Source of the DNA: Candidatus Omnitrophota bacterium
GTDB lineage: Bacteria > Omnitrophota > Gorgyraeia > Zapsychrales > Zapsychraceae
DNA length: 64,000 bases
Assembly: GCA_020429915.1 (NCBI GenBank)
Contig: JAGQKV010000018.1
Location: 133,770-197,769 of the forward strand
Reading direction: 5' to 3'
Each line of letters opens with the position of its first letter. Position 1 is the stretch's first letter. Shown here in pieces: positions 6,183 through 29,485 of this stretch. A model generated the notes under the pieces. It was not told where the DNA came from. It did no database searches and was given only the letters and a program-made list of their open reading frames with translations. Position numbers and translations under genes: made by a program.

Positions 6183-7579
6183 CCATTGTCAGACTCCTCA
6201 TTGCGCTGGGCTTTCCGGTTATCCTGGGACTGGCGTTGATGCGTCGTTTGCACGCGGACCGGTTGTTATCACTCGGCGCGCGCGTTCCCTGCGCGTTCGC
6301 CCTCGGGATGGGCATGGTGAGCCACTGGATGCTGCTGATGACCATAGCGGGCGTGGGCTATTCGGTGGTGAGCCTGCATCTGCCCCTGGCGGTTATCGCT
6401 GCCGCCTTGTGGCTTACGGCCGGTGGCAGCCATACGGACACGCCGGCGCCGAGGCAAGGCACCGCCGCCGGCGGTTGGCGCACGGCGGCATTGGTCGTGA
6501 TTTACGCCTTTATCGCATATATGACGGTGTTCATCGGCGTACGCGCGCTGATGGTCCCGATCATGGAGTGGGACGCGATATCCTGGATCGCGCTGAAGGC
6601 GAAAATCCTTTTTTATGAAAGCGGCGCGATCCCCATCGCCAAGCTTCCAAATTCCGCCTACCCGCTGCATGTGCCATTGAGCCTGGCGTGGATCGCCTTC
6701 CATCTCGGCGAGTGGAGCGAGACCCTGATCAAGGTCCTGTTTCCCACGTACTACCTCTTGTTCGCCCTTTTTCTGTACGCCACGGCGCGGCTATACGTCG
6801 ACCGTCTCTGGGCCGCCCTGTGCGCAGCCTTGTTCCTTTCGGTCCTCTTCGCTCCCTATCACGCGACCATCGCGTACCGCGATACGGTGATGATGAACTA
6901 TTTCTGCGGTGGCATGCTGGTGCTGGTTTACTGGCTGAAAAATACACGCCCGCCGTTGTTATGGATCACGGCGATCCTGTTAGGTCTCGGAAGCTTTGTC
7001 AAACTGGAAGGGGCTTTGTATATGGGACTGGGATTGATGCTCCTTGCCGCGGCGGTCTTGTTGTACGGTCCGCGGGAGCGCTTCGCCAAGATCCGCGCAA
7101 CCGGGATCAGCGCCGCCATTAGCGCGGGGATCTTTGCGATCTATTTCATCTATAAAAATCTGATTGGGGCAACCCACGCCACTCAGGACACCACGGTCCA
7201 CGCCGCCGGCGGGACAGGTTCCCGGCTGTGGGAAGTGCTGACGGCCGTCGGCCGGGAGCTTTTCTTAAGCGGTAATTGGCATATTTTGTGGGCGCTCTTC
7301 GCGCTGAGCATCTGGCTGCCGGTGGACCGGCAACGACAGGCGGCGCGTCTCGTTACCGCGGTCACCGTCATCGCGTTTATCACCGTGTATGTTGGCCTGG
7401 GGACGTTGACGGGCATCTACAAGTCGGTGCTTGGCCTGGGATCGTCCGGGGTCCTTCCCCGTATCTTCATACATGTGTATCCGTTGGCGGTGTTGAGCAT
7501 CTGCCTGGCGGCGGCTGAGCGGCCCGACAGCGTCGGAACCGGTCGTCCCCAGCAGGAGGGGAATGTCGGTGAGCGGTGA
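6179..7579 (+). CDS. Polytopic integral membrane protein (~12 TM), possibly GT-C-fold (ArnT/PMT-like) glycosyltransferase
   Basis: 466 aa, almost entirely hydrophobic helices with short loops. It pairs with the upstream membrane ORF. The family call rests on architecture only, with no motif match. Its last 315 nt overlap the 3' end of the giant minus-strand ORF (see findings). Confidence 0.4.
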   Translation: MTIVRLLIALGFPVILGLALMRRLHADRLLSLGARVPCAFALGMGMVSHWMLLMTIAGVGYSVVSLHLPLAVIAAALWLTAGGSHTDTPAPRQGTAAGGWRTAALVVIYAFIAYMTVFIGVRALMVPIMEWDAISWIALKAKILFYESGAIPIAKLPNSAYPLHVPLSLAWIAFHLGEWSETLIKVLFPTYYLLFALFLYATARLYVDRLWAALCAALFLSVLFAPYHATIAYRDTVMMNYFCGGMLVLVYWLKNTRPPLLWITAILLGLGSFVKLEGALYMGLGLMLLAAAVLLYGPRERFAKIRATGISAAISAGIFAIYFIYKNLIGATHATQDTTVHAAGGTGSRLWEVLTAVGRELFLSGNWHILWALFALSIWLPVDRQRQAARLVTAVTVIAFITVYVGLGTLTGIYKSVLGLGSSGVLPRIFIHVYPLAVLSICLAAAERPDSVGTGRPQQEGNVGER

Positions 7580-10500
7580 GATGTTGATGATAACGGGCAC
7601 AAAGCCGTTGATGTTGATGTTGTGCAGTTCCTGCGGCGTGAAATAAGTCGGCGTGAATACCCACTCTCCCTGAGTCCGCAATTCGTAGTTGGCCGGATTC
7701 AGGTCGATCCCCCCTTTGGTATCTTCGGTCAACAAGGCATTGTCGAGGATCTCCTGCATTAAGTCGCGGGCATTAAATAGCCAACTATCTCCCATGGTGA
7801 CCATCCTACTACCGGGCCGATTCATCCTTTCGATGCGCTCCTGGATAATCCGGTTAAAGGCCCGGATAATGTCGCGGTCGGCGTCCGACAACAAGGCCTT
7901 GTTGCGACTGAAGCGCATCAACGGATAAAGGCCCAAATCCCAATAGTCGTATCCGGAATTGCCGCTGGCCATCCAAGCCGTCAGGCGCGCAATCTTATTC
8001 AAATTGGCCTGCTTATGTCCGTCAAATACATGCGCAAAGTCCGGGCGGACGTCCTTGACACCCAGCTCCCAGAGCATATCGATAGCAACCTTACGCACTA
8101 GGAGATCGGTTGAACTCAGTGCCAGCTCAAGGGACGGGATTACCTGTTCCCGATCCACCGTTTCCAGCAAAAACTCTGACACGCGCAGGTGACGCGTGGC
8201 GTAATACTGGATGCGGGTCAGCGCCAATGCGGCGAGGACTCGCGATGAACGCTGCGGCGAATTCAATAACGGCGCCAGGTCCGCGAGTCCGTTGACATAT
8301 GTCTGTAATATCGCATCCGGCAAAACAGGATGCGTCGCGTACATTGGCCGATAGGTCCCGCGGGCGTTTAAGTCAATACGCGGTTGGATAAACAATAGGT
8401 CGGGCAAGACCAGACGGACCATGGAACCCAACACCCGCGCCGACTCGACGGCCACAGGCAGCGGATAATCTTTGCTACGATCCCTAAGACCGAGATTCGA
8501 TAGTAGTGTTTCTAACGAAGTACCGCCGGACCGCCGGGATAGCTCCGCAGGGTCGAGTCGATACAGCTGACGGTATTCTTCAATCATTGGACCAAAAACT
8601 TCTCTCCGACGGGTGTCGGCGTTGTATGCCGCGATATCCATGTAAATCTCTTGAATCTCCGCAACTGTCAAATCCTCATAACGGTTACTGGGGACCGACT
8701 GCGGGACTCCGGCGGTCCTCCGGGCGGTCAAACCGGGCGCGGTGCAGGCGGAACAGAGACCGACGACAGCCAACCCCAGGAAGGATCGGCGTGACATCTT
8801 GACGGCCTCTTCCGGACGAAAGCCTGAGTGCAGGGCGTTTCCGAAGGCGGCCGCCAACTGATCAAACAGTGTTGCCAAGTCCTCATCATCCGCAGAAACG
8901 ATGACCGCCTGGTCCGGAGTCTGCAGGGCGACAATGGCCTCAAGGAAATTGGTGATCACCACCGTCAGGCGCTCGCGGCGCACCTCGTCCCCCTTCAACA
9001 CACGCCGGGCTTCGGCCAGGATATCGTCGAATTCTTCCTTAAGCTTCCGACGCAAAGCACTCCGCTTTTCCTCTCCGGTGACGACCTTCCAATCTCCGTC
9101 TCTCACCCGGCCGTCGTCGATACGCGGCTGCAAGGTCTTATCACGCAGAAGACGGCCGTCTTCCCCGTTGTCCTCGATGACCTCACCGGTTTGTGGATTG
9201 CGTTCCCGCAGCAGAACATAACCCTGCTCGTAGCCGCCGGCCTTATCAAAACGGGCGCGGCGGATCGCATGGATCTTCTGAATACCGAACATATCCGCCA
9301 CCGCCCGGGCGTTCTTGGACATAGTGATCAACGCTCGGGCGTCGAATTGTCGGTTAACGTACAATGTTCGAAAAACGAGATCCGCCGTCGACAGGAACTT
9401 ATCGGCGTCCCGGACCACCAGGCTATCGGCGGCCGCACTGCCCGGCGCTTCCGGTTGCATCGGCCGATCACGCGTTGTGTCGATCTGCGTGTGGCGGACC
9501 GGATCCGGATAGACCGCCATGGCCGGATTGCCGTTCGGCGCAATCAGGATCCGGTCGCGGGCCGTGACTTCCTGGTCCATGGCGCGGGCCGAAATATTGT
9601 TGATAAACAAATGCGCCCGCGCGAAATCAAATTCTCCGTCACGGGTGAACAGCCGCGACCGGAGATCCTGCAGTCGAATCAGCCGGCGGTCCAGCGCCTC
9701 GCGATCTTCCGAACCAAGTCCCTCCTCCAGCTTGTCCCGCTCCAGTTTATAAATCCCGACATCCATCGCCAGGCGAAGAGCATCAATGAGCTGCGCCACG
9801 GTGTTGCCCGTGACATAGGGCCGGGACAACGGACCGGCCAGGTCGGCCAGCTCGTCGGCGATGACGACATCCAGCGTATTGCCCGGCAGTACAGAGCCGA
9901 GGGCATGCTTGATCACGGCGGCGGCGTCCCGGTTCATGATAAAGCGATCCCGTCCGTTGGCCAGAAAGGCCACGAATTCATCGGTGGTCAACGGCACGCC
10001 GACATACCCGAGGGCCTCGGCAAAGTTTTCATCAGCCAGTATCGCGTCGACCGCGCCGCGGTCGAATATCAAATAACTTTCCATCCCGTAGGGAGATTCC
10101 GTAGACGTCACCTTGACCCGGCCCAATCCGCGGTGATACGCTTCTTCCAAGATCATCTCCCGCCGCCGGGAACCGACTATCGCAAACGGCAACACGGCGA
10201 TGGGCGTTTCCCGACCGACCCGGCTCAAGTCCCGCGCTGATCGTACCAGCAGCGCGGCATCGGACTCATCCATAGCCTGCAGGGCATAAACGGCATCCAT
10301 GAAATTAGTCATCACGACCGTCATTCTCTCCCGGCGATGTTCCTCGCCATCCATGACGCGTTGCGCTTCGCTCATGACATCCTCAAACTCCTCCTGCAAT
10401 TTGGCATGCAGGGCCTCGCGCAACGCGCTTCCGGCGACGGTTATCCAGTCGCCTTCGCGAACCCGGCCGTTGTCGATGCGCGGCTGCAATGTGTTGTCGC

Positions 10501-12925
10501 GCAGCAGACGCCCCACCGGGCTGTTATCCTCGGTAATTTCGCCGGTGGCCGGATCACGCTCCCTTAAAAGGACAAACCCCTTCTCATAACCGCCGGACAT
10601 TTCCAATCGAGCTGCTCGTTGACCTTCGAAATTCGCAACGTTCATGGCATCCGCAATCGATTCGATTTGAGAGAGCATGATCCGCAACGAGTCCCGGTCA
10701 TATTTCTTATTAAGGTACAAAGCGCGGACGCTGGTGTTCGCCCGCTCCACAACCACCCGGACATTCCCCGCCAGTCGCACGCGGGCCGGTAGATACAGAC
10801 GCAGCAGATTCATGGTTTTTAGACCTACATCGCTCTTGCCCGGGACTCCAATCACGTTGGGGAAGGCCGTCATGACAAAGTTGCTCAACCGTGTCGGAAA
10901 CCAGTGGCCGTTGCCCAACTGATTGTCGCGGACAATCACCGGCAGGTCGGGATATGTCTCCCCCAATGCACGGGTGAATTGGATCCCGTTCATATCCGGC
11001 ATACTCACGTCAGTGATCACCATATCCGGACGGCGCTGTCCCACACTGGACAGTCCGGCGAGACCGCTGTCGGCCACGGTCACTTCGTAGCCCTCCTCTT
11101 CAATGCGGGCAATCAATTTTTCAACCTCACTGAAATTATCGTCCACCACGAGGACCAGCGGCTTACGGCCGTCGGCTTCACGGGGTTCGAAATGACGGCC
11201 GTTTCTCTCCGGCCAGTTTCGGGGATGACTGGTCAATTTCCGGGCCAATCCGGTGATGGTCTCATCGTCCGCAATGATCCCATACCCGATCACATTGTTC
11301 AGCAACACCAGTGTTCGGGTAGCCCGGCCGGTCTCGGTGACCGCATCCAGGACGGCGAGCAACAATTCCGCCGGCCGCATGCCCCGGAAGTTGTCCGTAT
11401 TACTTTCGTAAAGAAATGTGTAAAGCATGATTTGTTCGTACAGCGATTCTTTTTGCTCGGGAGCGGCGTCGATCAGGGCGTCGAGTCTGTTAACAATGGC
11501 CACCAGCTGCGCGGCGGTTTCATAACGCTTGCGCGGACGCAGCGGGCCGCGCTGCAGATCCCCGGGCAGACGGTCACGCGCTTCATCCCACAGATTGTAC
11601 CGGGGAAGCGCGGCCAACAATTCTTCTTTGAATCCCAGCGAGCGGACGGCGCGCCATTCCACTTCTTCAGTGACGCGGCCGAGCCTCCGGTCGAATTCGT
11701 CTTTGGACAGCATGGCTCCGTCACGCGCCTCCGTCACGCCGGCCCCGTCGGACAGGCGTTCTCCCTGAAACCGGTCCAGTATCACCGCGACGGTGCGGGC
11801 CCCTTCCAGGGTGTCACGCAGACGCTGCCGGCTCAACATCGATTCGTCAGTGGCGACTTGCACCTGTGCCTGCACGCCGCCGGAGAAATACTTGCGCGGC
11901 ACGGTGTGACGGGTCACGGGATCATAGTCTTCACGGATGTAGTCGTACACGCCCTTTTCAAACGCCGCGACATACTGCCGGTAGATCTTGCGGTTGATGT
12001 CGGCATCGGCCGTATCGACGCCGTCCGTCCTGGCCCGGTCGACATACACCTGACCGAGAAAACTTTCGCGCAAATTCTGTTTGTACCAACTCGCCAGAAT
12101 AACCGCGCTGAAGATCTGCCGCAGCGGCGCAAAGGTCCGGCCCGTATTCACCTCACGTTCGATTTCCGGAATAAGTACCTCACGCACGATATCGGCGGTG
12201 ATCCCGTTGTCACCATCGACGGCGCCGCTTTCGGCGTGATGTTCCGCCAGGCTGAGGTAATCCGATTCCAGCATGACCCGCAAATGAGAGTCAACCACAA
12301 ACACGGCTCCGTCATGCACATACACGGTGGCCGTCTGTGGAACGATCCAAACCTTATTGAAGGTGTTCATCGGGATGGCGGTGGTCCCGAAGCGCGCCTG
12401 CGCCTTTCGATACACACGCTCCCAAAACTCACGGCCGAGCTCCTCCTCCGGATACATGAGTGAGGCGGTGAGTTGCTTCAGGAGATAATCCTGGGCCAGC
12501 ATGTCACGGCCGAGACGTGTCCTGCCGAAGTCTGCGGGAATGATGCGGTCGGCTTCATAGGGTGACAAATTGACCCAGAGTTGATCTTCGGGCGTTGTCA
12601 ATGCGGCGAGAAAGTATTTGATGAGTTTATCGGATTCGTCCCGGAAGGCGGCATCATCCGCGGAAGCGTCGCCGGGATGGATCACGAATTCGAGCTTGAG
12701 CGGATTGCCTTCATCCAGCCGCATCCCGCGCATCAATGCCGGCTCGAAGCGGCCGGCCGGCTGCACCCGGGTCCCGGGCGCGGGCAGATCGAGTACGGTG
12801 GCGGGCTGAGCGGCACGGGCAGGAACCGGAGGCACAATCGTTCCCCAGACAAAGACCGCCGTGATCAACACGGACAAAATCTTGCGGCCACAGGAATCCC
12901 GCAATGTTCGTTCGAAAAGGGACAT
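7265..12925 (-). CDS. Giant multidomain secreted/membrane protein P1 (1886 aa): signal peptide, unknown N-terminal domain X shared with P2, REC domain, 2x repeated domain Y, internal Tat/lipobox-like segment, HEAT-like C-terminal region
   Basis: One uninterrupted frame of 5.66 kb. A random GC-rich frame would carry dozens of stops, so the open frame implies selection. The N-terminus is a signal peptide (KILSVLITAVFVWGTIVPPVPARAAQ). Residues ~45-350 are paralogous to the N-terminal domain of ORF 26102..29485, with shared blocks LWVNLSPYE..RIIP, DYLLKQLTASLMYPE, FNKVWI.P, LIPEIERE.N.G..FAPLRQI, SFLGQ.YVD, PR.YFSGG. The last ~100 aa are RQ-rich and low-complexity, antisense to the 6179..7579 gene, so the true 3' end is uncertain. 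Confidence 0.75.
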   Translation of the reverse strand: MSLFERTLRDSCGRKILSVLITAVFVWGTIVPPVPARAAQPATVLDLPAPGTRVQPAGRFEPALMRGMRLDEGNPLKLEFVIHPGDASADDAAFRDESDKLIKYFLAALTTPEDQLWVNLSPYEADRIIPADFGRTRLGRDMLAQDYLLKQLTASLMYPEEELGREFWERVYRKAQARFGTTAIPMNTFNKVWIVPQTATVYVHDGAVFVVDSHLRVMLESDYLSLAEHHAESGAVDGDNGITADIVREVLIPEIEREVNTGRTFAPLRQIFSAVILASWYKQNLRESFLGQVYVDRARTDGVDTADADINRKIYRQYVAAFEKGVYDYIREDYDPVTRHTVPRKYFSGGVQAQVQVATDESMLSRQRLRDTLEGARTVAVILDRFQGERLSDGAGVTEARDGAMLSKDEFDRRLGRVTEEVEWRAVRSLGFKEELLAALPRYNLWDEARDRLPGDLQRGPLRPRKRYETAAQLVAIVNRLDALIDAAPEQKESLYEQIMLYTFLYESNTDNFRGMRPAELLLAVLDAVTETGRATRTLVLLNNVIGYGIIADDETITGLARKLTSHPRNWPERNGRHFEPREADGRKPLVLVVDDNFSEVEKLIARIEEEGYEVTVADSGLAGLSSVGQRRPDMVITDVSMPDMNGIQFTRALGETYPDLPVIVRDNQLGNGHWFPTRLSNFVMTAFPNVIGVPGKSDVGLKTMNLLRLYLPARVRLAGNVRVVVERANTSVRALYLNKKYDRDSLRIMLSQIESIADAMNVANFEGQRAARLEMSGGYEKGFVLLRERDPATGEITEDNSPVGRLLRDNTLQPRIDNGRVREGDWITVAGSALREALHAKLQEEFEDVMSEAQRVMDGEEHRRERMTVVMTNFMDAVYALQAMDESDAALLVRSARDLSRVGRETPIAVLPFAIVGSRRREMILEEAYHRGLGRVKVTSTESPYGMESYLIFDRGAVDAILADENFAEALGYVGVPLTTDEFVAFLANGRDRFIMNRDAAAVIKHALGSVLPGNTLDVVIADELADLAGPLSRPYVTGNTVAQLIDALRLAMDVGIYKLERDKLEEGLGSEDREALDRRLIRLQDLRSRLFTRDGEFDFARAHLFINNISARAMDQEVTARDRILIAPNGNPAMAVYPDPVRHTQIDTTRDRPMQPEAPGSAAADSLVVRDADKFLSTADLVFRTLYVNRQFDARALITMSKNARAVADMFGIQKIHAIRRARFDKAGGYEQGYVLLRERNPQTGEVIEDNGEDGRLLRDKTLQPRIDDGRVRDGDWKVVTGEEKRSALRRKLKEEFDDILAEARRVLKGDEVRRERLTVVITNFLEAIVALQTPDQAVIVSADDEDLATLFDQLAAAFGNALHSGFRPEEAVKMSRRSFLGLAVVGLCSACTAPGLTARRTAGVPQSVPSNRYEDLTVAEIQEIYMDIAAYNADTRRREVFGPMIEEYRQLYRLDPAELSRRSGGTSLETLLSNLGLRDRSKDYPLPVAVESARVLGSMVRLVLPDLLFIQPRIDLNARGTYRPMYATHPVLPDAILQTYVNGLADLAPLLNSPQRSSRVLAALALTRIQYYATRHLRVSEFLLETVDREQVIPSLELALSSTDLLVRKVAIDMLWELGVKDVRPDFAHVFDGHKQANLNKIARLTAWMASGNSGYDYWDLGLYPLMRFSRNKALLSDADRDIIRAFNRIIQERIERMNRPGSRMVTMGDSWLFNARDLMQEILDNALLTEDTKGGIDLNPANYELRTQGEWVFTPTYFTPQELHNININGFVPVIINISPLTDIPLLLGTTGSDAVGPLSRRQADAQHRQRIHMYEDTGKDPGRSQAKHRLVDARQRPQANIHGDKRDDGDRGNETRRLSLPVHRQPDAQREERPQNMPITA
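8743..8797 (-). other. Internal Tat/lipoprotein-signal-like segment in P1 (MSRRSFLGLAVVGLCSAC) with an upstream SD-like sequence
   Basis: In-frame ATG at 8795-8797, preceded by GGAAGAGG with an ~8 nt spacer. It encodes a twin-arginine consensus S-R-R-x-F-L-G, a hydrophobic core and a lipobox L-C-S-A-C. The ~500 aa that follow are HEAT-like. Confidence 0.4.
8890..9405 (-). repeat. Internal duplication in P1, copy 2 of domain Y
   Basis: RTLYVNRQFDARALITMSK...RRARFDKAGGYEQGYVLLRERNPQTGEVIEDN..GRLLRDKTLQPRIDDGRVRDGDW...KLKEEFDDI..EARRVLKGDEVRRERLTVVITNF..A.VALQ. I estimate ~45-50% identity to copy 1 by eye. The copies are ~1.35 kb apart. Confidence 0.6.
10240..10755 (-). repeat. Internal protein-level tandem duplication in P1, copy 1 of a ~170 aa domain Y
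   Basis: Residues ~725-895 (RALYLNKKYDRDSLRIMLSQ...RAARLEMSGGYEKGFVLLRERDPATGEITEDN..GRLLRDNTLQPRIDNGRVREGDW...KLQEEFEDV..EAQRVMDGEEHRRERMTVVMTNF..A.YALQ) align with residues ~1175-1345. The duplication is also visible as two similar antisense ORFs in the track (10299..10589 and 8901..9221). Confidence 0.6.
10820..11170 (-). other. Embedded receiver (REC, CheY-like) domain inside P1, about aa 588-700
   Basis: KPLVLVVDDNFSEVEKLIARIEEEGYEVTVADSGLAGL...RPDMVITDVSMPDMNGIQF...LPVIV. It has the acidic pair (DD), the phospho-acceptor Asp (ITDVSMP) and the DMNG motif. The conserved Lys after beta5 is not obvious, so it may be degenerate. Confidence 0.6.
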
Positions 12926-12987
12926 AGTTTATGGCTTACATGCTCGCGCACGGAAGCGTATCTGATTCAGAATCTAAAGATTGGATA

Positions 12988-13030
12988 TGATTGGGGAATG
13001 GGTTGGTGTATTACTATGATTAATAGTATA
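12988..13030. promoter_or_regulatory. Upstream motif pair before P1: TGATTGGGGAAT (12988-12999) and ATGATTAATAGT (13016-13027)
   Basis: The same 12-mer TGATTGGGGAAT and a near-identical ATGATTAATA(T/G)T box recur upstream of paralog P2 at 29505-29516 and 29549-29560. Both are in the same orientation relative to the genes. This P1 intergenic region is noticeably AT-richer than its surroundings. Confidence 0.45.
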
Positions 13031-13125
13031 AGTCATTCAACCGCCGGAATCAACCGCGCGGAAGCGATCCGGACAGAACGTCATTACCTCTTTACTCGGA
13101 ACAATTTATGATGCGTAATCGGCCC

Positions 13126-13518
13126 TTACTCGGCTTCTTCCAGAGCGCATACCCCTCCATCACAAACTGGTTTCGGCACGGCGGCCGCGGGCCGGGCACA
13201 ATCCAGAATGGCGCCGTACTGAACCGCCGCCTTGTCATAGCACTGCCGGAACTCCTGATTGACCGGGGTAAATTGTCCGCACGGGACCATAACCACGGCG
13301 CAGTCTTCATCCTGTTCGCAATGGCGCACCGTTTCTTCCGTTAAGTCCAGGACGGCCTTGGCCATCGTGGTGTCCATACCCTGCAGCGACAGAAAGTCCG
13401 TGCAGACCTGATCGGCATTGTCGGCCTCCTGGGCGCCGGTTTTTCCACCATTGGCAATAAGCATGCCTGCGGCCGCGATAGCTGGTAACGTCGCGACGAT
13501 TACCCAACGTGATCTCAT
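13126..13518 (-). CDS. Small secreted Cys-rich protein (130 aa)
   Basis: The ATG at 13516-13518 has AAGGAG 6 nt upstream. A signal peptide (MRSRWVIVATLPAIAAAGMLIANG) is followed by a mature domain with 8 Cys (CTDF..HCEQDEDCAVVMVPCGQF..QCYD..LDCARP..PVCDGGVCALEE). It sits directly upstream of P1 on the same strand. Confidence 0.55.
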   Translation of the reverse strand: MRSRWVIVATLPAIAAAGMLIANGGKTGAQEADNADQVCTDFLSLQGMDTTMAKAVLDLTEETVRHCEQDEDCAVVMVPCGQFTPVNQEFRQCYDKAAVQYGAILDCARPAAAVPKPVCDGGVCALEEAE

Positions 13519-13564
13519 GGCATCTCCTTGTGAATCGGTTGCGTCTCCGGGCAGACAGTAAAAA

Positions 13565-14038
13565 CTAGGCCCGATATCCGTCAAGGTTAATTTCGAGGTA
13601 CGGTTCCTGTTCCGGCCAGTCGGTTTCAATCGTATCTTCGTCGATAATCTCCGGCATTTTGACCGGCTTCTCCGTCGTAGGCACGTCAGTCACCGTATCG
13701 GCGTACGCGGTATCCGTATCGAAAATCCGGTCGCGGGTCTCCACCATACGCTGCCCCACATACGTGGCGGGCAGCAGAAAAAACATCAGCACCAACCACG
13801 TGGTCCACAACAGCCAGAAATACTCCGCAAAACCGCGGCCGGTAATGGCGCGGTAGAAGGTCACAAACGGGATCGTCCCGTTGGCGCTGATAAAGGTGAT
13901 ACCCAGCGCCCACCCGATGTAAAACGTCAAATTCAGCGAAAAACCGGCATGCTCCATCAGCGCACCGATCGCCCCGAGACTGATCAGGCAAATCAACAAA
14001 CAATGCCAAGTCAGATTGCGGATGAAAGATTGTTTCAC
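13565..14038 (-). CDS. Hypothetical membrane protein (4 TM) with an acidic C-terminal tail; GTG start
   Basis: 157 aa with helices LTWHCLLICLISLGAIGAL, LTFYIGWALGITFI and YFWLLWTTWLVLMFFLL, then a D/E-rich tail. The start codon is GTG at 14036-14038. Confidence 0.45.
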   Translation of the reverse strand: MKQSFIRNLTWHCLLICLISLGAIGALMEHAGFSLNLTFYIGWALGITFISANGTIPFVTFYRAITGRGFAEYFWLLWTTWLVLMFFLLPATYVGQRMVETRDRIFDTDTAYADTVTDVPTTEKPVKMPEIIDEDTIETDWPEQEPYLEINLDGYRA

Positions 14039-14173
14039 GAAAGCTTTCCCAATTTACAGAATTGGCTCGGCAGGAAGTACGCTCCCCCGCCATGTCAGGA
14101 CCGCTGAGCGGATCCCTGTTTGAGATCTACTATAGCATACTTTTCCTACCCGGCTGGTCCCGGACATAACCCC

Positions 14174-14531: not shown

Positions 14532-14534
14532 AGG

Positions 14535-16789: not shown

Positions 16790-16792
16790 AGG

Positions 16793-19008: not shown

Positions 19009-19149
19009 GTAAGGTCCTTGACTGGTGGGGTTTTCGCTGCCACAACACTCTTGCTGCGGGGACAAATTATGTTACAGGCTGCCAAAATGCTTGTCAATAT
19101 AATAGCGAGGCAAATGTTGAAGGATCCGGCCGGCGCGGTACAATAACTC

Positions 19150-21774: not shown

Positions 21775-23905
21775 GGTCGGTCGCTTTGCCTCGCTGTTTT
21801 ATGAGTGATTGGATTTGCTGGATGTAAACCTCATGGACGTCCTTGCCCAACTCACGCGCCTTGCGGACATCGGCCAGGGCGCGCTCGTAGTCGCCGGTCT
21901 GCATATACACCAGTGACCGGTTGAAATACGCTGACGAATAATCAGGGTCATAGTCGATCGCTTTATTGAAATCTTCCAGGGCCAGCTCGCGGCGGCCGCG
22001 GCCGCCGTAGATAATTCCCCGGTTGTTGTAGACCTGAGAGTAATTATAACGTATTTTCAGCGCCGCGGCATAATCCTTCATCGCCGCCTCAATATTGTGC
22101 ATATCCCGGTATACGTTGCCCCGATTGTACAGGGCGTCGGCATAATCGGCCTTGCGTTGCAGGGCTTCGTCAAAATCGGCCAGGGCCAGTGGAAAAAGCC
22201 CTTTTTGCTGATACACGATGCCCCGGTTATTGTAAGGTTCATACAGCGTGGGATTTAGTGTAATCGCCCGGGTAAAATCCGCCAGGGCCAGCTCCGATTG
22301 CCCGCTCTGCCCGTACAGGACGCCCCGGTTTACATAAGCCTGGGCGTAGGCCGGCCGCAGGGAAATCGCCCGGTCATAGTCCTGCAGGGCCAAATCATCC
22401 TTGCCCAGCCGGCGGTACAGATCGCCCCGGTTATTGAAAGTGATCGCGCTCCCGGGCTTCAGGGCCAGGGCGCGGTTATAGTCCCGCAGGGCCTCATCCA
22501 AGCGTCCCAGCTTGGTCAGGGCCAGCCCCCGGTTGCCGACGGCCTTGTAGGCCTGCGGATTCAGGCTGATGGCCGTGTCCAAATAATCAAGTGCTTCGGC
22601 CGGCTGATCGCGCTGCAGGTACGCGATCCCCAGACTCGTATAGGGCCGCGATTTGTGAGGCGACTTGCGGAGCACATCGGTCCACAGGCTGATCCCGTCC
22701 CGCCAGACCAGGTTGCGCTGGACCGTCAGAACCGACAGCACCGCCACCCAGATCAGGACCGCCGCCCTGACCGCCCCCGGCCGGCGCGTGCCCGTCCACA
22801 GCGCGGTAACAACGGCCAGGGTCAGCCCCGCCATCGGCAGGTACATCCGGTGTTCGAAAATGACATTTTTGATGGTGATAAATGTCGACTCCACACTGAT
22901 CGTGATAAAAAACCACAGGATACCGAAGCCAACTAACGGATGCCGGCGGAGCGCCCGGCAGCCGGTGACAAACAGTAGGGTCAAACCGACGAATCCGGCG
23001 ATCACCGGCGGATCAAAAAAGTGATAGAACGTCGGGAAATCATAGTCCAGGTTCTGTCCGTACGGCAGGAAGAAAAGCCGGATGTAAGTCCACAGCACCG
23101 GCATCTGGGTGAAAAAATAGCTGAGCGGTGTTAACGGGTCCCCCTCATGCGATTCGGAGACGTGCTGAATATTGAGGATGCCGGGCTTAAATGAAAATAT
23201 GCCCGGTACGACCAACAGGAACAGGGCAATGACGCCGATGGTGCGCCAGCGGGTCCGTTCCTCCCGCAGAAATGCCGTCTCCATCAGGATCAGCGTCAAC
23301 GGCAGAGTAAAAGTGATCTGCTTGGTAAACATTCCCAACAAGGCGGAGACCGCCGCCGCGATGAAACAAACCGCCGCCGGCACCGCCCGGGCCCGTCGTC
23401 CCAACAGATAAAGTACCGCGGTCAGCAGATAAAAAAGCGTCGCCAAGCTGGCAAAACGTTGGCTGATGTAGGTGACCGCCTGCGTCTGCAGCGGATGCGC
23501 GACGAACACCAGGGACGTCAATAAAGCAAGCCAGCGGGCATGCTCCCCGAGCGGATGCCCGCGCATCCGCGGCGTCGAAAACAGCAGCATCACCATCCCC
23601 CACACCAGCAAGCCGTTGATCACATGCACGACCGTGTTGAAGATATGGTAGCCGACGACATCATAGCGGTGCCAATGGTAATTCAGGGCGAAGGTGTAAA
23701 AGGCCACAAAGCGGGCCGGATGGGAGTGCGCATGCCAGATGGCTGTGGTATCCTTGATATCACGGATTTCGGGCTTTTCCACGATAAAGAACATATCGTC
23801 GAAATGGAAGGCGTTGTGCAGGGAATTCGCGTATATGGCCGTGCCCAGGCCGGCGATCAGGCAGAGGGATAGCAGACAAAACGTTTGAGCTTTAGCGGGA
23901 ACCAT
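21767..23905 (-). CDS. Membrane protein with an N-terminal PMT_2/GT39-like polytopic domain and a C-terminal TPR array
   Basis: 712 aa. The first ~400 aa are TM helices, as in dolichyl-phosphate-mannose-protein mannosyltransferase-like (DUF1736) proteins. Then come ~9 TPR repeats (AYLQRDQPAEALDYLDTAISLNPQAYKAVGNRGLA..., repeated). Confidence 0.8.
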   Translation of the reverse strand: MVPAKAQTFCLLSLCLIAGLGTAIYANSLHNAFHFDDMFFIVEKPEIRDIKDTTAIWHAHSHPARFVAFYTFALNYHWHRYDVVGYHIFNTVVHVINGLLVWGMVMLLFSTPRMRGHPLGEHARWLALLTSLVFVAHPLQTQAVTYISQRFASLATLFYLLTAVLYLLGRRARAVPAAVCFIAAAVSALLGMFTKQITFTLPLTLILMETAFLREERTRWRTIGVIALFLLVVPGIFSFKPGILNIQHVSESHEGDPLTPLSYFFTQMPVLWTYIRLFFLPYGQNLDYDFPTFYHFFDPPVIAGFVGLTLLFVTGCRALRRHPLVGFGILWFFITISVESTFITIKNVIFEHRMYLPMAGLTLAVVTALWTGTRRPGAVRAAVLIWVAVLSVLTVQRNLVWRDGISLWTDVLRKSPHKSRPYTSLGIAYLQRDQPAEALDYLDTAISLNPQAYKAVGNRGLALTKLGRLDEALRDYNRALALKPGSAITFNNRGDLYRRLGKDDLALQDYDRAISLRPAYAQAYVNRGVLYGQSGQSELALADFTRAITLNPTLYEPYNNRGIVYQQKGLFPLALADFDEALQRKADYADALYNRGNVYRDMHNIEAAMKDYAAALKIRYNYSQVYNNRGIIYGGRGRRELALEDFNKAIDYDPDYSSAYFNRSLVYMQTGDYERALADVRKARELGKDVHEVYIQQIQSLIKQRGKATDHE

Positions 23906-23983
23906 GAATAATAGTACGTAGTCAACGGGCTATTATCTTAACGAAGCGGGCTCATTCTTTCAATCAAAAACAACGGAGGCCGG

Positions 23984-24418
23984 ATGGACTCGGTGATGGA
24001 AGAGATTAAAAAGTGGCTGACCAGATTCGCGGTGTGCGTGCGCGAACGGAATTTTGCCGGCGGCCGCGAGATGTTCTACGAAGACGTGGTCTGTTTCGGG
24101 AGCCGGGCCGAGATCCTCATCGGGTTGGATGATCTCATCGAGCGGCAATGGAAAGCGATCTGGCCGAACATCACGGGGTTCCATTTCCTCACCGATCGCT
24201 TTCACTGCGAGATGAGCGCTGACGGGCGCACAGCCTGTGTAATCGTCCCCTGGATCTCAACCGGATATCATGAAGACGGAACCTCCTTTCCCCGTCCGGG
24301 GCGCGTCACCATCCTGCTCGTTCGGGACAATGAACAGGGCGCCTGGCTGGCCAAACACACCCACTACTCGCTTTATCCGGGAACACCTAATCAAACATTC
24401 GGACGGACCGGCGGCTGA
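23984..24418 (+). CDS. SnoaL-like / NTF2-fold (DUF4440-type) small protein
   Basis: 144 aa; EEIKKWLTRFAVCVRERNFAGGREMFYEDVVCFGS...W...TACVIVPWISTGYHEDGTSFPRPGRVTILLVRDNEQGAWLAKHTHYS fits an NTF2-like alpha+beta cone. Its stop lies 3 nt before the next ATG. Confidence 0.45.
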   Translation: MDSVMEEIKKWLTRFAVCVRERNFAGGREMFYEDVVCFGSRAEILIGLDDLIERQWKAIWPNITGFHFLTDRFHCEMSADGRTACVIVPWISTGYHEDGTSFPRPGRVTILLVRDNEQGAWLAKHTHYSLYPGTPNQTFGRTGG

Positions 24419-24420
24419 TC

Positions 24421-25482
24421 ATGCAGATTTTCTACCTGTACTGCGGGACGAATCCCAATCCGATCCGCCAGTATCTGACCCTCAGCGGACGTGTGCACGC
24501 GGGTTCCGTTCTGCCGGTGACCTACCGGTCGCTGCTCAAGAAGAAAAACTTCCCCCCCGGACTGTATATCTTCACGGACATCGAACTGCTGGACGGTGAA
24601 CGGCGGCGGAGGCTGGTCGAGCTGTATGAAAGGCTGGCCGATCAGCCGCAGCGCTACCGGCTGTTCAACCATCCGGGGCGCACCTTAACACGTTTCCCGC
24701 TGCTGCGCACCTTACATGAAAAGGGTTTCAATGACTTCAATGTCTTCCGGGCCGCCGACGACCTTTCCTCCCTCAGCTTTCCGGTGTTTCTGCGCCGGAC
24801 GGATGACCATCGCGGACCGCAGACCGGATTATTGACGGATCGCCACGCCCTGAACAAAGAACTGGAACGGCTCGCGCACAACGGCGAGGATTTGCGGAAG
24901 TGGCTGGTCACCGAATTTTGTAATGTGATCGACCGGCACGGCATTTACCGCAAATATTCGTCGTTTGTCTTCGGCACCACCATCATCCCGCGGCATTTGT
25001 TCTTCAGCAAGGAGTGGATCCAGAAATTCGACATGAACCTGCCCGAACTTGATCAGGGCCGCGAGGAACTTGATTTCCATCACCACAATCATTTCACCGA
25101 ACAATTGACGGCGATTTTTACCCGAGCCGATGTGCAATTCGGACGGATCGACTTCGGCGTGCTCAACGGTCGTGTGCAGACATGGGAAATCAATACCAAT
25201 CCGATGATCATCGCCCACAGTCACGTGGGCAACGTCCCGCGACGTAACATTCACGAGTTGTTTTTTGAAAACTTCCGGCGGGCCGTAGACCGGATGATTC
25301 AGGAACCACCGCACCACCGTCCCGGACCGGCGTACTGGCCTGACCGTGTGGCGATGACCGCGGGGACTTTGTGCGAGCGGCAACGGCATACGCCTGTCGG
25401 AGAATTATGTTCGCGGATCAAATGGAAATGGGATCGACTGACGCGCAAAGGCGGGCCTTGTGTTGACGGACGGACTGCGTGA
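24421..25482 (+). CDS. Hypothetical protein (353 aa), possibly ATP-grasp-like; family not recognised
   Basis: Plausible globular ORF (no TM), translationally coupled to the SnoaL-like gene. I cannot assign a family from sequence alone. Confidence 0.45.
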   Translation: MQIFYLYCGTNPNPIRQYLTLSGRVHAGSVLPVTYRSLLKKKNFPPGLYIFTDIELLDGERRRRLVELYERLADQPQRYRLFNHPGRTLTRFPLLRTLHEKGFNDFNVFRAADDLSSLSFPVFLRRTDDHRGPQTGLLTDRHALNKELERLAHNGEDLRKWLVTEFCNVIDRHGIYRKYSSFVFGTTIIPRHLFFSKEWIQKFDMNLPELDQGREELDFHHHNHFTEQLTAIFTRADVQFGRIDFGVLNGRVQTWEINTNPMIIAHSHVGNVPRRNIHELFFENFRRAVDRMIQEPPHHRPGPAYWPDRVAMTAGTLCERQRHTPVGELCSRIKWKWDRLTRKGGPCVDGRTA

Positions 25483-25826
25483 GTTCGTGCTTTACAGGGA
25501 TTGGAAAGTTTGGTATAAAGGAAACTTGAATTTCGCACAGCATCAGCCTCCTCTTCCCGGCCTCTTTGGCGGGAATTTATGTATTCCAGGCACATCTTGA
25601 TAAGCTGCTGCAGAAAAAAGGTTTATGTCGATTGCTGAAACATCCCGGGCAACGGCTGCGGAAACATCATCCCGGGAAGGCCAGTTCAAGCCGGGTGAAT
25701 CGACCAACCCCTTTTTTGATCATTGAACTGTCTGTATTTAGTCTGTGTAATTCCGGAGAGTCCGCCAAACTTGCAGAACAAATTTGACGAGACGGCTCCA
25801 CAGGAAATTACGCAGCTACCCCTTTT

Positions 25827-25915
25827 GGAGAGGTGCCAGAGTGGCCGAATGGAGCTGACTGCTAATCAGTTGTCTCCCGCAAGGGGGACCCAGGGTTCGA
25901 ATCCCTGCCTCTCCG
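25827..25915 (+). tRNA. tRNA-Ser (anticodon GCU), type II with a long variable arm
   Basis: GGAGAGGtgCCAGAGTGGCCGAATGGagCTGACTGCTAATCAGTTGTCTCCCGCAAGGGGGACCCAGGGTTCGAATCCCTGCCTCTCCg. The acceptor stem 7 bp is GGAGAGG/CCTCTCC; anticodon loop CTGCTAA; T-loop GTTCGAATC; extra arm 18 nt. Confidence 0.85.
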
Positions 25916-26031
25916 TTCTTCTTCTCCAAATCCCGTCTGAGAAACTCAAACAAGATTTCTGAGAACCCGCGTAGCGTCAATCAATGATTGATCCGCTGAC
26001 GTCATTGAATCCATTGATTAATTCGCGCCTA

Positions 26032-26075
26032 TCGGGCCGCCGAATATCCCTTCGGCGGATTTTTTATTTATAATC
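26032..26075 (+). terminator. Rho-independent terminator downstream of tRNA-Ser
   Basis: GGCCGCCGAAtatcccTTCGGCGGattttttattt: a 9-10 bp GC stem with a 6 nt loop, followed by a T-tract on the plus strand only. Confidence 0.5.
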
Positions 26076-26101
26076 AAGGGGGGTGCGTCGGGGAGGCGGG
26101 A

Positions 26102-29100
26102 CTATTCCCGACCGGAAAAGATGAGGGCCTCGGAAACCGGTGTCAGTTCGACAATCACGGGACGGAGTCCGTTAATTAAAACTCCCGCCCTCTCCCCCGC
26201 GCCGGGGCTAGGGGAAAGACCATCCAGGCGACCACCGCGGTCGATGACAATTTCGTTCATGTCGATACCGCCGACCTCCGACAGTTGCGCGTTGTCCTGG
26301 GACCTGTTACGCCGGATATACCCGTAGAAAGCGAGCAGGGCCAGCAAGCCGCCGGCCGTCAGGCTCCAATTGCGAATCACCGGCCAGCGCTTCTCCTTGA
26401 ATATTCTCCACTCGAGTCCGTCAAAGTATTCCGGATCGACGGCCGCCAGTAAATCCAAATCATCGGCGTACACTTCCAGAAAATCTTCCCTGTCATAGGC
26501 GTCGAGCAAGCGCGTCTTCAGAATCGCGGCTAAGACCTCGCGGTCCGTTTCATTGTAGAGAATAGCATTAATATCTCTGTTCCTATTGTATCTTAGCGTT
26601 AGCTGCGGCGATGCATTGACCCGGGCCCGTACATCCAATAGTGTGACCGGATCCATGGCCAATACCTTCAGACTGGACACATAATCCACGGCGTTGGGGG
26701 ATCGGGCACTGTAGAAATGCCGTTCCACGATCGGCATCACTCCTTCCGTGTAACCGATACTGACCAGCGTGTCGGCAATGGCGGGATAATCTTCGTAGAG
26801 GTTGGAATTACCAAAAAGGCGTTCCACATCTATGATATCCCTCAAATACGGCCCGGCGGCCGCGGCCTCCGGCCCCATCCGGCGCATCCCTTCCAATGTC
26901 ACCAGGAACAGGCTGTTAAGACCCACGATCTTGGCTCTATGTAACCAGTATTTCTCCAGGACATCAATATATATGGGCAGGAGAGCTTCCTCGGGGACCT
27001 CCAGCCTATGCAACTGCTGCAGGGCCGCGATCCGGGCAGGTCCGTTGAGGTCTCTGGTATAAAGGTACGCCGAACTGCCCGGCATACTGGTGGGTGTGAA
27101 AATGTCCTCCGTGCGGGCAATCCTCAGCAAATCCTCCACCAATTCCGCCGGGACCGTCGCAAGGGCGCCGACAGAGCGAGCGGCATGCGTCCGCAATTCC
27201 GGTTGGGCTGAGTCCAGGTCCCGTCGAATACGCCTGATCCTCTCTGATTCCGGAACCTCTGACAGATATACAGCGCGCACCGAATCAGGCAAGCGTTCCG
27301 CAATCCGGTAAGCGAGCAATCGCATCCGCCATTCCTCACTATCCCGGTATTTCCTGATAGCCGGCAAAAGAGAGTTGGACTGCGCCTGGAGCCTTAAATA
27401 AATTTCGGTAAGGGCGGAGATGACGTTAGTGACTTCATACGGTATTGATTCTTCACTAATAATCCGCAACTGTCGAAGTCGTTCTTCGAGGACAGGTACG
27501 GCGGATTCATCGCCGATACGCTGCAAATCTCTGATCGCCACCACATGATTGCTACGGTCCGGGTACAATCCTCGGTTGCCGACGACCCGCCTGTCGGCGG
27601 CACGCAGCGCACGGGCATAGATCGGTATCGCCGCCTTGACCCCCTCGTTTTGAAATCTGGTCAATGCCTGGCTCAGCCCGTCATTGAGACGTCCGTCCGC
27701 TGTCATGAGCCGGCGGATTAAAAACGGAATCGCTCGCGGATCGCCGAACTCTAACAAACCTTCCGCCGCGCGGCCCTGCACATAGGGATCGGGACTTTCA
27801 AGCAGCCCCAGTAGGGCATTGTACGCCGGTTCGCCGAAACGTGTCAGAAGTCTGTAAGCGGACTTCGGCACGACTGTGTTGCCGGCGACATCCTGAAAGA
27901 CGGCCGATTGGGGATTTCCCAATTCCTGAATGAGGCGGTCCATAGCCCTGGGTCCCAGGGCCAGGAACTGATCTTCGTATCCCTTGGGAAAACCGAAATT
28001 GTCGCTGTCGCGGTAGATCGCTATCAACAAATCCTCAAGGCGATCCGCCTCGAACAACTGGATCACGGTCGTGTCCTGTTTGCCCTGGCCTCCGGCCTGA
28101 TCCCGTTCGCATGCCGTGCACACACCGAGGACAATGAGGCCGCTGAGAATAAGCCGTAAAGGCACGGATGTGCTGCGGAATTTCCCCTTAAACGGGACCT
28201 TGAGAATGTGTCCCAACTGCGTCAATATGGCTTGGTCCGAGGGGTAGGGAGAATTCCACTCAGGGTGGACTTGCAGGTTCACTTTATACAAATCACCCGT
28301 AAGGTTCCGGGCAAACATCGCCCGGTCGGGGCTGTGCCCGAGCGTAATGTCCGTACCGGTAAATCCTCCGGAGAAATAATGCCGGGGAATCGCATGAGCC
28401 GAGAGCAAATCCCGGTCTTCTTTGATGTAGTTGAAAACTCCGATCTTGTAAGCGGCCATATACTGATCGTAGATGCGACCTTGCATACTGGCGTCAACGT
28501 CGTCTATTCCACGGACCTTGTTGAGGTCAACGTAGGCCTGCCCCAAAAAGCTGTCCCGCAGGGTTTCTTTATACCATTGTGCCAAAATCAACGCGTTGTA
28601 GATTTGCCGTAAAGGCGCAAAATTCTCACCTTCATTAATCTCCCGTTCAATCTCCGGCAAAATTAAATCGCGCACAATCTCGGCACTGAGAGGAAGTTCC
28701 GCGGGGGCATGTGCGCGGGCGGCGAAATCATCGGCCTGCCGCAACGCCTGATAGTCATGATCCAGCATGACTTTCAAGCGCGATTGGACGATATATACCG
28801 TCGATTGATCCTCGTAAACCCGCGCATAATCCGGCAGGATCCAGACCTTGTTGAACGTTTCCAGCGGAATATCCGTTGTCCCGTACCGGGCGCGGGCCTT
28901 GTTATAAATACGCTCCCAGAAGGTTTTCCCCAATTCCTGCTCGGGGTACATCAAACTCGCCGTCAGCTGCTTAAGCAGATAATCTTGTTTAAGTAAGTCC
29001 CGACCCATCTGCGTGCGGGCCAAATCCGGCGGAATGATCCGCTCTGACTCATAAGGTGATAAATTAACCCATAAATCTCCCTGGGGAACCGTCAAAGACG

Positions 29101-29485
29101 TCAGAAAATATTTCGCCATCTTTTGAGCCTCGTGACGAATGCCCTCGCGGGAGATGCTGGCGTCTCCGCTTTCCATAATAAACTCGAAATGGAAAGGCTC
29201 GTCCGGATAGACCGTCATTCCCTTGACCAGAACCGGGTGATAAGCGGGACTCGGAGCGACTCGAACACCGGGCACGGGCAACCCCTCAGCTCCGGCACCG
29301 GGATCGGCACCATAGACCGGGGCCGGCAGCATCACGTTGCCGGTGATAAAGCAAACCATCAGGGCAACGGTAACGATCCGGCGAAAGATTCCATTCCTGG
29401 GTTGATGTTGTTCGATAAACATGGGACTCCCCGAATACGAAAAACGGCCGGCCATGCCGATCATGGCCAAACGGTATTCGCTCAA
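26102..29485 (-). CDS. Giant secreted/membrane protein P2 (1127 aa): signal peptide, domain X (paralog of the P1 N-domain), internal hydrophobic lipobox-like segment, HEAT/PBS-lyase-like repeats, C-terminal TM helix
   Basis: Signal peptide RRIVTVALMVCFITGNVMLPAPVYGA; the real start may be the in-frame Met at 29422 (MFIEQHQ...). Residues ~65-400 align with P1 residues ~45-350. An internal hydrophobic segment LRLILSGLIVLGVCTAC (28108-28159) parallels LAVVGLCSAC in P1. Then come HEAT-like repeats (YVQGRAAEGLLEFGDPRAIPFLIRRL...) and a C-terminal TM (WSLTAGGLLALLAFYGYIRR). Confidence 0.75.
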   Translation of the reverse strand: MSEYRLAMIGMAGRFSYSGSPMFIEQHQPRNGIFRRIVTVALMVCFITGNVMLPAPVYGADPGAGAEGLPVPGVRVAPSPAYHPVLVKGMTVYPDEPFHFEFIMESGDASISREGIRHEAQKMAKYFLTSLTVPQGDLWVNLSPYESERIIPPDLARTQMGRDLLKQDYLLKQLTASLMYPEQELGKTFWERIYNKARARYGTTDIPLETFNKVWILPDYARVYEDQSTVYIVQSRLKVMLDHDYQALRQADDFAARAHAPAELPLSAEIVRDLILPEIEREINEGENFAPLRQIYNALILAQWYKETLRDSFLGQAYVDLNKVRGIDDVDASMQGRIYDQYMAAYKIGVFNYIKEDRDLLSAHAIPRHYFSGGFTGTDITLGHSPDRAMFARNLTGDLYKVNLQVHPEWNSPYPSDQAILTQLGHILKVPFKGKFRSTSVPLRLILSGLIVLGVCTACERDQAGGQGKQDTTVIQLFEADRLEDLLIAIYRDSDNFGFPKGYEDQFLALGPRAMDRLIQELGNPQSAVFQDVAGNTVVPKSAYRLLTRFGEPAYNALLGLLESPDPYVQGRAAEGLLEFGDPRAIPFLIRRLMTADGRLNDGLSQALTRFQNEGVKAAIPIYARALRAADRRVVGNRGLYPDRSNHVVAIRDLQRIGDESAVPVLEERLRQLRIISEESIPYEVTNVISALTEIYLRLQAQSNSLLPAIRKYRDSEEWRMRLLAYRIAERLPDSVRAVYLSEVPESERIRRIRRDLDSAQPELRTHAARSVGALATVPAELVEDLLRIARTEDIFTPTSMPGSSAYLYTRDLNGPARIAALQQLHRLEVPEEALLPIYIDVLEKYWLHRAKIVGLNSLFLVTLEGMRRMGPEAAAAGPYLRDIIDVERLFGNSNLYEDYPAIADTLVSIGYTEGVMPIVERHFYSARSPNAVDYVSSLKVLAMDPVTLLDVRARVNASPQLTLRYNRNRDINAILYNETDREVLAAILKTRLLDAYDREDFLEVYADDLDLLAAVDPEYFDGLEWRIFKEKRWPVIRNWSLTAGGLLALLAFYGYIRRNRSQDNAQLSEVGGIDMNEIVIDRGGRLDGLSPSPGAGERAGVLINGLRPVIVELTPVSEALIFSGRE

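Follow-up and report, generated by a model that had tools for sequence, protein, structure and literature searches.

A bookend family of Omnitrophota proteins with two conserved ends and variable, cysteine-depleted middles

Omnitrophota are widespread, uncultured, ultra-small bacteria which presumably live on other cells, and the most striking trait of their genomes is their large and giant proteins. Here we describe two large genes in a 64,000-nucleotide (nt) stretch, hereafter the window, of contig JAGQKV010000018.1 (assembly GCA_020429915.1, Candidatus Omnitrophota bacterium). These are the minus-strand open reading frames (ORFs) P1 (7265..12925) and P2 (26102..29485), and they belong to a very large unnamed family that is almost entirely from Omnitrophota in the sampled records. 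The family design, which we call ‘bookend’, consists of a signal peptide, a head domain of unrecognised fold, a junction motif, a swappable middle, a second junction motif and a C-terminal motif (C motif). Our preferred reading, to which we assign a probability of about 0.45, is that these are Sec-exported modular proteins in which both conserved ends are export, anchoring or assembly handles for a swappable payload.

The closest described proteins are the Omnitrophota giants of at least 10,000 aa, whose N-terminal regions are described as having no identifiable domains (Nielsen and Lui 2026, bioRxiv 10.64898/2026.06.07.730766; West-Roberts et al. 2023, bioRxiv 10.1101/2023.11.21.568195). In these preprints, DeepTMHMM mostly predicts a signal peptide plus transmembrane helices, and flanking secretion genes are reported. 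The sugar-processing domains are speculated to act in or on a host, or on released host cytoplasm (West-Roberts et al. 2023). The family described here has the Omnitrophota origin, the signal peptide and/or transmembrane segments and the tiled cytoplasm-type Pfam domains by which the giants are recognised. The two groups share payloads (starch synthase, PGM, PPDK, receiver, HATPase, HAD, NUDIX, radical SAM and HEAT), predicted signal peptides or transmembrane helices, and hypervariable sequence between members. However, at 1886 and 1127 aa, P1 and P2 are below the 10,000-aa mark. No mention of a conserved head, a C motif, junction motifs or cysteine depletion was found in the searched text of the giant-protein preprints, and the searched text of the main paper on the phylum gave no description of the head domain.

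The two ends and their coupling

A preliminary description of the window had proposed that two large minus-strand ORFs share an N-terminal domain that it could assign to no family. Both ORFs are present as described, and BLASTP aligns residues 1-350 of P1 with residues 22-374 of P2 at 177/353 identities (50%, E 4e-113), so the identity is not negligible. The conserved blocks that were quoted are there too, with trivial slips (P2 has YESERIIP, ILPEIERE and IPRHYFSGG). Outside this shared region the two proteins have only two weak matches, at a G-[LV]-C-[ST]-A-C segment (E 0.002) and at a C-terminal GGID..PVI (E 0.078).

An exhaustive profile search of 1.84 billion cluster representatives finds the head domain at the front of 8,400 protein clusters (6,814 at E ≤ 1e-30), with matches at residues about 1-400. 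Among the 150 matches listed, the start always falls within the first 64 residues. The paralogy proposed for P1 and P2 is thus borne out, but they are no mere pair: the family to which they belong comprises about 8,400 clusters and is carried by many other genomes. Lengths among the 150 listed proteins span about 420 to 5,312 aa, and 10 or more head-domain ORFs continue >3,300 aa beyond the fetched DNA. The named proteins among 1,074 matches from a word-indexed search with the domain are nearly all hypothetical proteins of Candidatus Omnitrophica/Omnitrophota metagenome-assembled genomes (MAGs), and almost none of the matches has a Pfam domain. GTDB species genomes hold at least 577 confirmed head-domain sites. 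Of the 80 sites listed with titles, the majority carry the name Omnitrophota or Omnitrophica; the title reads ‘uncultured Planctomycetales’ for about twenty and ‘bacterium’ for a few, and for these last two groups the placement is that of the record titles only. Several genomes are multi-copy (at least 9 copies in one genome among the matches listed), and same-strand tandem arrays are frequent, with four copies at locus L011 and three each at L007, L022 and L066. Clustering of all ORFs from 79 loci turned up no recurrent neighbour, for example a transporter or peptidase, apart from further family copies, and conservation of the gene neighbourhood therefore offers no partner gene at these loci.

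The head domain stays unplaced, as the preliminary description had it. No match was found in Pfam or NCBIfam scans of full P1 and P2 (E ≤ 1), in PDB sequence searches with a single sequence and with a 57-sequence profile, or in a fold search with an AlphaFold model derived from the same 57-sequence alignment. The model is of fair quality (predicted local distance difference test score, pLDDT, 77; predicted template modelling score, pTM, 0.79) and has two beta-hairpins and about nine helices in a mixed alpha/beta arrangement. Head domains of different members have a median identity of 62%, and many polar residues are invariant (N84, D111, K115, Q116, E223, N225, R234, Q235 and K247, model numbering). 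Such conservation would be expected if the head domain were itself the functional unit, either a binder of a host-surface or envelope ligand or an unrecognised enzyme, with the rest of the protein in an accessory role and the C motif as no more than an anchor in the membrane or wall. We consider this very unlikely: there is no invariant Cys/His/Ser arrangement typical of hydrolases and no fold match, and both the variety of enzyme payloads and the strict one-to-one coupling of head to tail would be left unexplained.

Ahead of the head domain, a predicted Sec-type signal peptide is a family-wide feature. Among 206 members the n-region has a median net charge of +3 (at least +1 in 97%), a strongly hydrophobic core follows, and 93% have an AXA-like site, for which PP..YAQ is typical. 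The N-terminal signal peptides claimed for P1 and P2 have these same three parts, and cleavage is predicted after A36-R37-A38 in P1 (residues 1-38, 12812..12925, minus strand) and after V57-Y58-G59 in P2 (residues 22-59, 29309..29422, minus strand).

The opposite end is marked by a feature that the preliminary description overlooked, as it did the junction motifs and the cysteine depletion treated below. The C motif spans about 55 residues with the consensus GGIDLNP..L.LQIKRDG.G.PLP...Q......I.GF.PVIINI.PV.NLPLLLG; its hydrophobic stretch holds three prolines, and it is followed by a short, mostly acidic tail of 6-60 residues. It closes 63 of 73 complete ORFs. Hidden Markov models of head domain and C motif were run on every stop-to-stop ORF of the 79 loci plus the window. 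Both ends are present in 69 ORFs and no ORF has more than one C motif. In 14 ORFs the C motif stands alone; each of them either has its start no more than about 100 nt from the beginning of the fetched DNA or comes after a head-domain ORF that is interrupted. In these loci and the window, head domain and C motif are thus strictly coupled, one head to one tail. A profile search of a large protein database with the C motif returned 59 short C-terminal fragments only, which do not bear on this coupling.

Between these ends, conservation is lost. The middles range from 186 to 4,835 residues (median 1,108), and only 131 of 13,203 pairs of middles (1%) have a BLAST match at E ≤ 1e-5. The divergence of the heads is nevertheless correlated with that of the tails (Spearman 0.41). 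Correlated divergence of the ends around unrelated middles indicates that the ends stay together while the middle is replaced. The C motif alone is predicted as coil without a fold (pTM 0.20), which fits a signal that needs a partner.

Short junction motifs mark where the middles meet the ends. SSPV is enriched about 45-fold in the middles and D.AM[LM] 34- to 49-fold. In 69 of 163 proteins (5.5% expected) a junction motif stands among the last 30 residues ahead of the C motif, and in 101 of 207 (20% expected) one stands among the first 120 residues past the head domain; P1 and P2 each carry one at both junctions. These motifs raise the alternative that the proteins are polyprotein precursors, in which D-x-A-M-L and SSPV would be processing sites, cutting after synthesis or export would yield the head, the tail and the modules of the payload, and separately targeted products would begin at the internal signal-like segments. 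The 10- to 49-fold enrichment of the motifs and their concentration at both junctions favour this, as does a DAAM motif that stands exactly at the end of a fused phosphoglycerate kinase (PGK) domain. Internal segments that resemble twin-arginine (Tat) signals or lipoboxes in P1 and several members point the same way, and cleavage has been proposed for giant relatives by West-Roberts et al. (2023). Against it, no protease is linked to the family at the 79 loci, and the motifs could be mere linkers, helix caps or modification sites. We judge processing improbable as the main explanation; it would fit either location of the protein and does not exclude that the ends are export handles.

Payloads, cysteine depletion and the case for export

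Pfam censuses of 39 and 40 family members show what the middles carry. The domains recognised are PGK (E 2e-82), PEPCK (9e-106), PPDK/PEP-utilising domains, phosphoglucomutase, PGI, PfkB, UDP-glucose pyrophosphorylase and starch synthase, and further HAD, metallophosphatases, NUDIX, PP2C, CofD, DRAT, proline dehydrogenase, B12-radical SAM, DnaJ, HEAT/Arm repeats, HATPase and receiver domains. Where PGK is fused, its ligand-binding motifs are kept but Cys is absent, compared with two Cys in a standalone PGK of the same phylum that is 35% identical.

At one locus (L054, 3824..5791, plus strand), a family gene is directly followed by genes for a standalone PGK (393 aa, 2 Cys) and a triose-phosphate isomerase; ordinary glycolytic genes of the cytoplasm are thus retained in at least some of these genomes. 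The family members seen with a PGK domain come from other loci (L004, L048, L056 and L034).

The loss of cysteine extends over the whole protein. Cys makes up 0.02% of the head domain and 0.05% of the rest, as against 1.08% in non-family neighbours (a 20- to 50-fold depletion), and 87 of 145 members have none after residue 45. Of the 1,848 P1 residues past the signal peptide only two are Cys (p = 3e-6), as are two of the 1,068 in P2 (p = 2e-3), and in both proteins these are the CxxC of an internal hydrophobic segment. Strong Cys depletion is typical of surface layers and of proteins that cross the outer membrane unfolded, such as autotransporters and two-partner and type I substrates.

Where Cys residues are left in the family, they often occur in one of three settings. 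The first is paired, Asp-rich C-x(7-10)-C loops just past, and occasionally inside, the tail motif (for example P0129 967-978, P0142 1267-1277, the L013 ORF 1491-1500 and the L040 ORF 1445-1454). By their sequence, these loops resemble thrombospondin type 3 and other extracellular calcium-binding loops. The second is internal signal-like segments, several of which are lipobox-like or twin-arginine-like. The motifs SRRSFLG, RRNFLK and RREFLK, each with a hydrophobic stretch, are found in P1, P0254 (about residues 440-460) and P0090; in 2 of these 3 cases a Cys stands at the end, and the segments look like Tat or lipoprotein signals fused in frame. The third setting is the CxxxCxxC of a radical SAM payload.

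So, are these proteins exported? If so, the signal peptide would take the protein out of the cytoplasm, and the envelope would use the head domain and tail motif as shared handles to hold, translocate or assemble it. The payload, purged of Cys, would then tolerate passage to and life outside the cytoplasm, and would act at the cell surface or on or in a host cell. This reading agrees best with the combination of a signal peptide and a head right behind it, no transmembrane helix between head and payload in most members, very little Cys, a tail motif that is not predicted to fold by itself and one tail for every head; the export, the role of the ends and the place where the payload works are inferred.

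Several observations weigh against export, the payloads above all: PGK that keeps its ligand motifs, PEPCK, PPDK, radical SAM with CxxxCxxC, DnaJ, receivers and HATPase are typical of the cytoplasm and depend on ATP, S-adenosylmethionine (SAM), Fe-S clusters or partners found there. P1 and many other members have an odd number of internal hydrophobic segments, which, if these are true transmembrane helices, would put the two ends on opposite sides of the membrane, and the positive charges that flank the internal segments of P1 and P2 fit no simple topology. No conserved neighbour such as a transporter or peptidase is found across the 79 loci, and the head domain has no fold match that would back any particular role. 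An attempt to fix the topology by the parity of internal transmembrane segments was dropped, as the counts are mixed across members.

The cytoplasmic character of the payloads suggests that the export reading may be wrong and that the proteins may instead be membrane-tethered cytoplasmic scaffolds. The N-terminal helix would then be uncleaved, or the head would sit on the inner face, and the payload would be a metabolic or signalling platform in the cell's own cytoplasm. Consistent with this, the payloads are cytoplasm-type enzymes and signalling modules that have kept their catalytic motifs: the P1 receiver keeps its acidic pocket and Asp 639, conserved in orthologs, and the radical SAM member retains its cluster cysteines. 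An ortholog of P1 is even named ‘response regulator’ by NCBI. However, the positive n-region and AXA-like site indicate an N-in orientation and cleavage, and most members have no transmembrane helix between head and payload, so both would be expected beyond the membrane. Nor is there an obvious reason for a cytoplasmic protein to lose Cys 20- to 50-fold, and in cases such as PGK, for which the phylum also has standalone housekeeping genes, the fused enzymes are additional copies. On balance we regard cytoplasmic scaffolds as rather unlikely.

If the proteins are exported with their two ends as handles, the payload may act in or on a host cell or on released host cytoplasm. A further possibility is that the domains serve binding, not catalysis. 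A bolder version of this reading, which we put forward as doubtful, takes head and tail as two halves of an undescribed sorting or assembly system, met so far almost only in Omnitrophota, through which these host-dependent bacteria would send out Cys-free central-metabolism and signalling enzymes to work on or within host cells. In it, the tail would dock into its own or the next head to form a surface coat, or an outer-membrane translocator would read both ends.

The shared head and tail define a superfamily that current domain databases miss, and they predict a common export, anchoring or assembly step. They also sharpen a paradox, in that glycolytic and signalling enzymes bear export signals and lack cysteines. 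If the payloads do act beyond the bacterial cell or in the host, a symbiont or predator would be putting metabolic enzymes to a new use. At the least, the two ends and the Cys rule are annotation markers for Omnitrophota genomes.

P1, P2 and their surroundings

P1 (1886 aa) has two orthologs that align over its full length, P0325 (1803 aa, 89% identity), from a Candidatus Omnitrophica MAG, and P0326 (1786 aa, 72%). Both are conserved throughout, every short motif included, so the whole P1 gene is under purifying selection, in agreement with the earlier proposal that these are real, selected genes. Public assemblies contain the exact P1 sequence in 48 blocks.

All P1 features lie on the minus strand. 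The head domain (residues 43-350, TVLDLPAPG...YFSGG, 11876..12799) is followed by the junction motif DGAML (residues 402-406, 11708..11722), which is kept in the orthologs, and by about 190 residues without assignment. Next is a partial response-regulator receiver (residues 591-665, 10931..11155) that covers profile positions 1-75 of 111 (Pfam Response_reg, E 3e-16) and in which DD595-596 and D639 are kept in the orthologs. A response regulator is a cytoplasmic protein whose receiver controls an output domain. In P1 the receiver is 4% of the 1886 aa, a signal peptide is predicted and Pfam and NCBIfam recognise no output domain, a composition that does not match the database label of the ortholog.

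Two copies of an internal repeat follow, copy A at residues 734-884 (10274..10726) and copy B at residues 1186-1336 (8918..9370), with 54% identity between them (E 1e-60). The module of about 150 residues (GGYE.G.VLLRER.P.TGE..EDN...GRLLRD.TLQPRID.GRVR.GDW) is without family assignment and was also found in one 4,743-aa family member, P0239. The internal signal-like segment SRRSFLGLAVVGLCSAC (residues 1378-1394, 8744..8794) combines a twin-arginine-like motif, a hydrophobic stretch and a CxxC, and its RR and both Cys are invariant in the orthologs. Its SRRSFLG and hydrophobic stretch resemble the Tat motif S/T-R-R-x-F-L-K, which belongs at the N terminus of an exported protein, but are found at residue 1378. 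About 330 residues without assignment lead to the junction motif DNALL (residues 1728-1732, 7730..7744), and five residues further on to the C motif, GGIDLN...NGFVPVIINISPLTDIPLLLG (residues 1738-1793, 7547..7714; hmmsearch E 6.5e-22).

The functional part of P1 probably extends to about residue 1806. The last residues of the orthologs are ...GPLSRR, and where P0325 has its stop codon the window reads CAG (7505-7507). Beyond this point lie 80 codons (residues 1807-1886, 7268..7507) that are missing from the orthologs, have atypical codon-position GC (third-position GC, GC3, of 0.59 against 0.69 in the rest of P1) and run antisense to ORF 6179..7579. Because the orthologs end earlier and the codon-position GC is atypical, we consider this tail a read-through extension that is outside the family design; the view that this basic, 80-residue tail is a true part of the protein was rejected on the same grounds. 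The antisense ORF 6179..7579 (plus strand) encodes a 466-aa polytopic membrane protein with many hydrophobic helices, no Pfam match and normal coding statistics (GC3 0.76). It is not called as a gene in public calls around P1, probably because of its overlap with the P1 tail.

P2 is 1127 aa when counted from its TTG codon, as in the residue numbers used here, but its true start is most likely the ATG at residue 22 (coordinate 29422), which has GGGGAG 5 nt upstream and would give a protein of about 1106 aa. Again on the minus strand throughout, the head domain (residues 67-374, 28364..29287) precedes the junction motif DRAMF (residues 387-391, 28313..28327) and an internal hydrophobic segment that ends in CTAC (residues 441-459, 28109..28165). 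HEAT repeats (Pfam HEAT_2, residues 536-597, 27695..27880) lie inside a cysteine-free region, residues 460-1030. A second internal hydrophobic segment (residues 1036-1054, 26324..26380) is followed by RRNR, and the junction motif DNAQL (residues 1064-1068, 26282..26296) stands three residues ahead of the C motif (residues 1072-1125, 26111..26272), which has the rarer variant GGIDMN...NGLRPVIVELTPVSEALIFSG (hmmsearch E 4.6e-08).

Two details of the preliminary description hold only in part. It had given both proteins HEAT/armadillo-like repeats; these are recognised in P2 (Pfam HEAT_2, E 1e-11; HEAT_PBS, E 3e-5), whereas P1 has no such match at E ≤ 1. It had also called the internal hydrophobic segments lipobox-like. 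The segments are there, ending in CSAC in P1 (1391-1394) and CTAC in P2 (456-459), but the label is doubtful because they are internal (P1 1391, P2 456) and an L or V precedes the first Cys. Bacterial lipoproteins carry [LVI][ASTVI][GAS]C where their N-terminal signal peptide ends, and neither segment shows this pattern. For the second Cys of SAC/TAC, positions -2 and -1 suit a lipobox, yet a Cys stands at -3.

The window holds only two copies of the family by tblastn of both conserved parts against its whole length. A third, weak tail-like match (62431..62589), within a histidine kinase, does not rise above chance (E 0.28) and was rejected. PADLOC gave marginal matches only, to the receiver part of P1 and the HEAT part of P2.

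P1 and P2 have housekeeping neighbours in the window, namely the genes for RecQ, DnaX, Tex, an MscS-like channel, a B12-radical SAM protein and a GGDEF-EAL protein. The B12-binding radical SAM gene (29635..31128, minus strand) is directly upstream of P2 on the same strand; radical SAM and B12 domains are also payload in other members, for example P0142. About 19 kb from P2 is a type II secretion/type IV pilus cluster (48539..58967, minus strand) with a secretin, an AAA_22 ExeA-like ATPase, PilM, and GspF-like and GspE/MshE-like proteins, and a second T2SSE-like ATPase lies further upstream (43537..45060, minus strand). The linkage of P2 to this cluster is loose, although it echoes the secretion genes that flank published giant proteins. 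The T2SSE-like ATPase gene is adjoined by a gene (40011..43499, minus strand) for a 1162-aa protein with a DUF58 match near the C terminus only. Another minus-strand gene (35914..37596, 560 aa) has matches to HTTM and to the vitamin K-dependent gamma-carboxylase lumenal domain (E 8e-38 and 9e-29), which is unusual for a bacterium.

Comparison with known secretion and sorting systems

The bookend design has partial counterparts in several characterised systems. The passengers of two-partner secretion (TpsA, type Vb) likewise begin with a Sec signal and a conserved secretion domain of about 250-300 residues, continue into a long, variable and Cys-poor passenger, occur as multiple paralogs and have short junction motifs ahead of the variable parts. 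Unlike TpsA, however, the head domain has no Pfam TPS (Haemagg_act) match at E ≤ 1 and is modelled as mixed alpha/beta and not as a beta-helix, and TpsA itself has no conserved C-terminal motif. No TpsB/Omp85 partner was found among the window ORFs scanned, although a distant partner elsewhere in the genome is possible.

LapA/RTX adhesins offer a different set of parallels. They have an N-terminal retention module with a protease site soon after it, a huge variable middle with few Cys, and an unstructured C-terminal secretion signal beside calcium-binding loops. However, type I substrates have no Sec signal, whereas a Sec-like signal is seen in 93-97% of family members, and the family payloads are enzymes and not adhesin repeats. 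Pfam and NCBIfam detect no HemolysinCabind (RTX) repeat in P1 or P2, and no ABC, MFP or TolC genes occur among the window ORFs scanned.

Cargo of the type IX secretion system (T9SS) and of sortase-type systems resembles the family in that many proteins of one phylum, unrelated in other respects, share a Sec signal and a conserved C-terminal element. In T9SS cargo the C-terminal domain folds as a beta-sandwich, in contrast to the C motif with its predicted coil. The sorting signals of sortase, exosortase and rhombosortase (LPXTG, PEP-CTERM and GlyGly-CTERM) have a transmembrane helix and a basic tail, where the family has a proline-rich stretch and an acidic tail, and the C-terminal regions of P1 and P2 have no Pfam or NCBIfam match at E ≤ 1. 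Neither type of cargo has a conserved N-terminal domain. As every testable defining feature of TpsA, LapA/RTX and T9SS/sortase cargo is missing from P1, P2 and their relatives, the family is not one of these systems and at most works like them.

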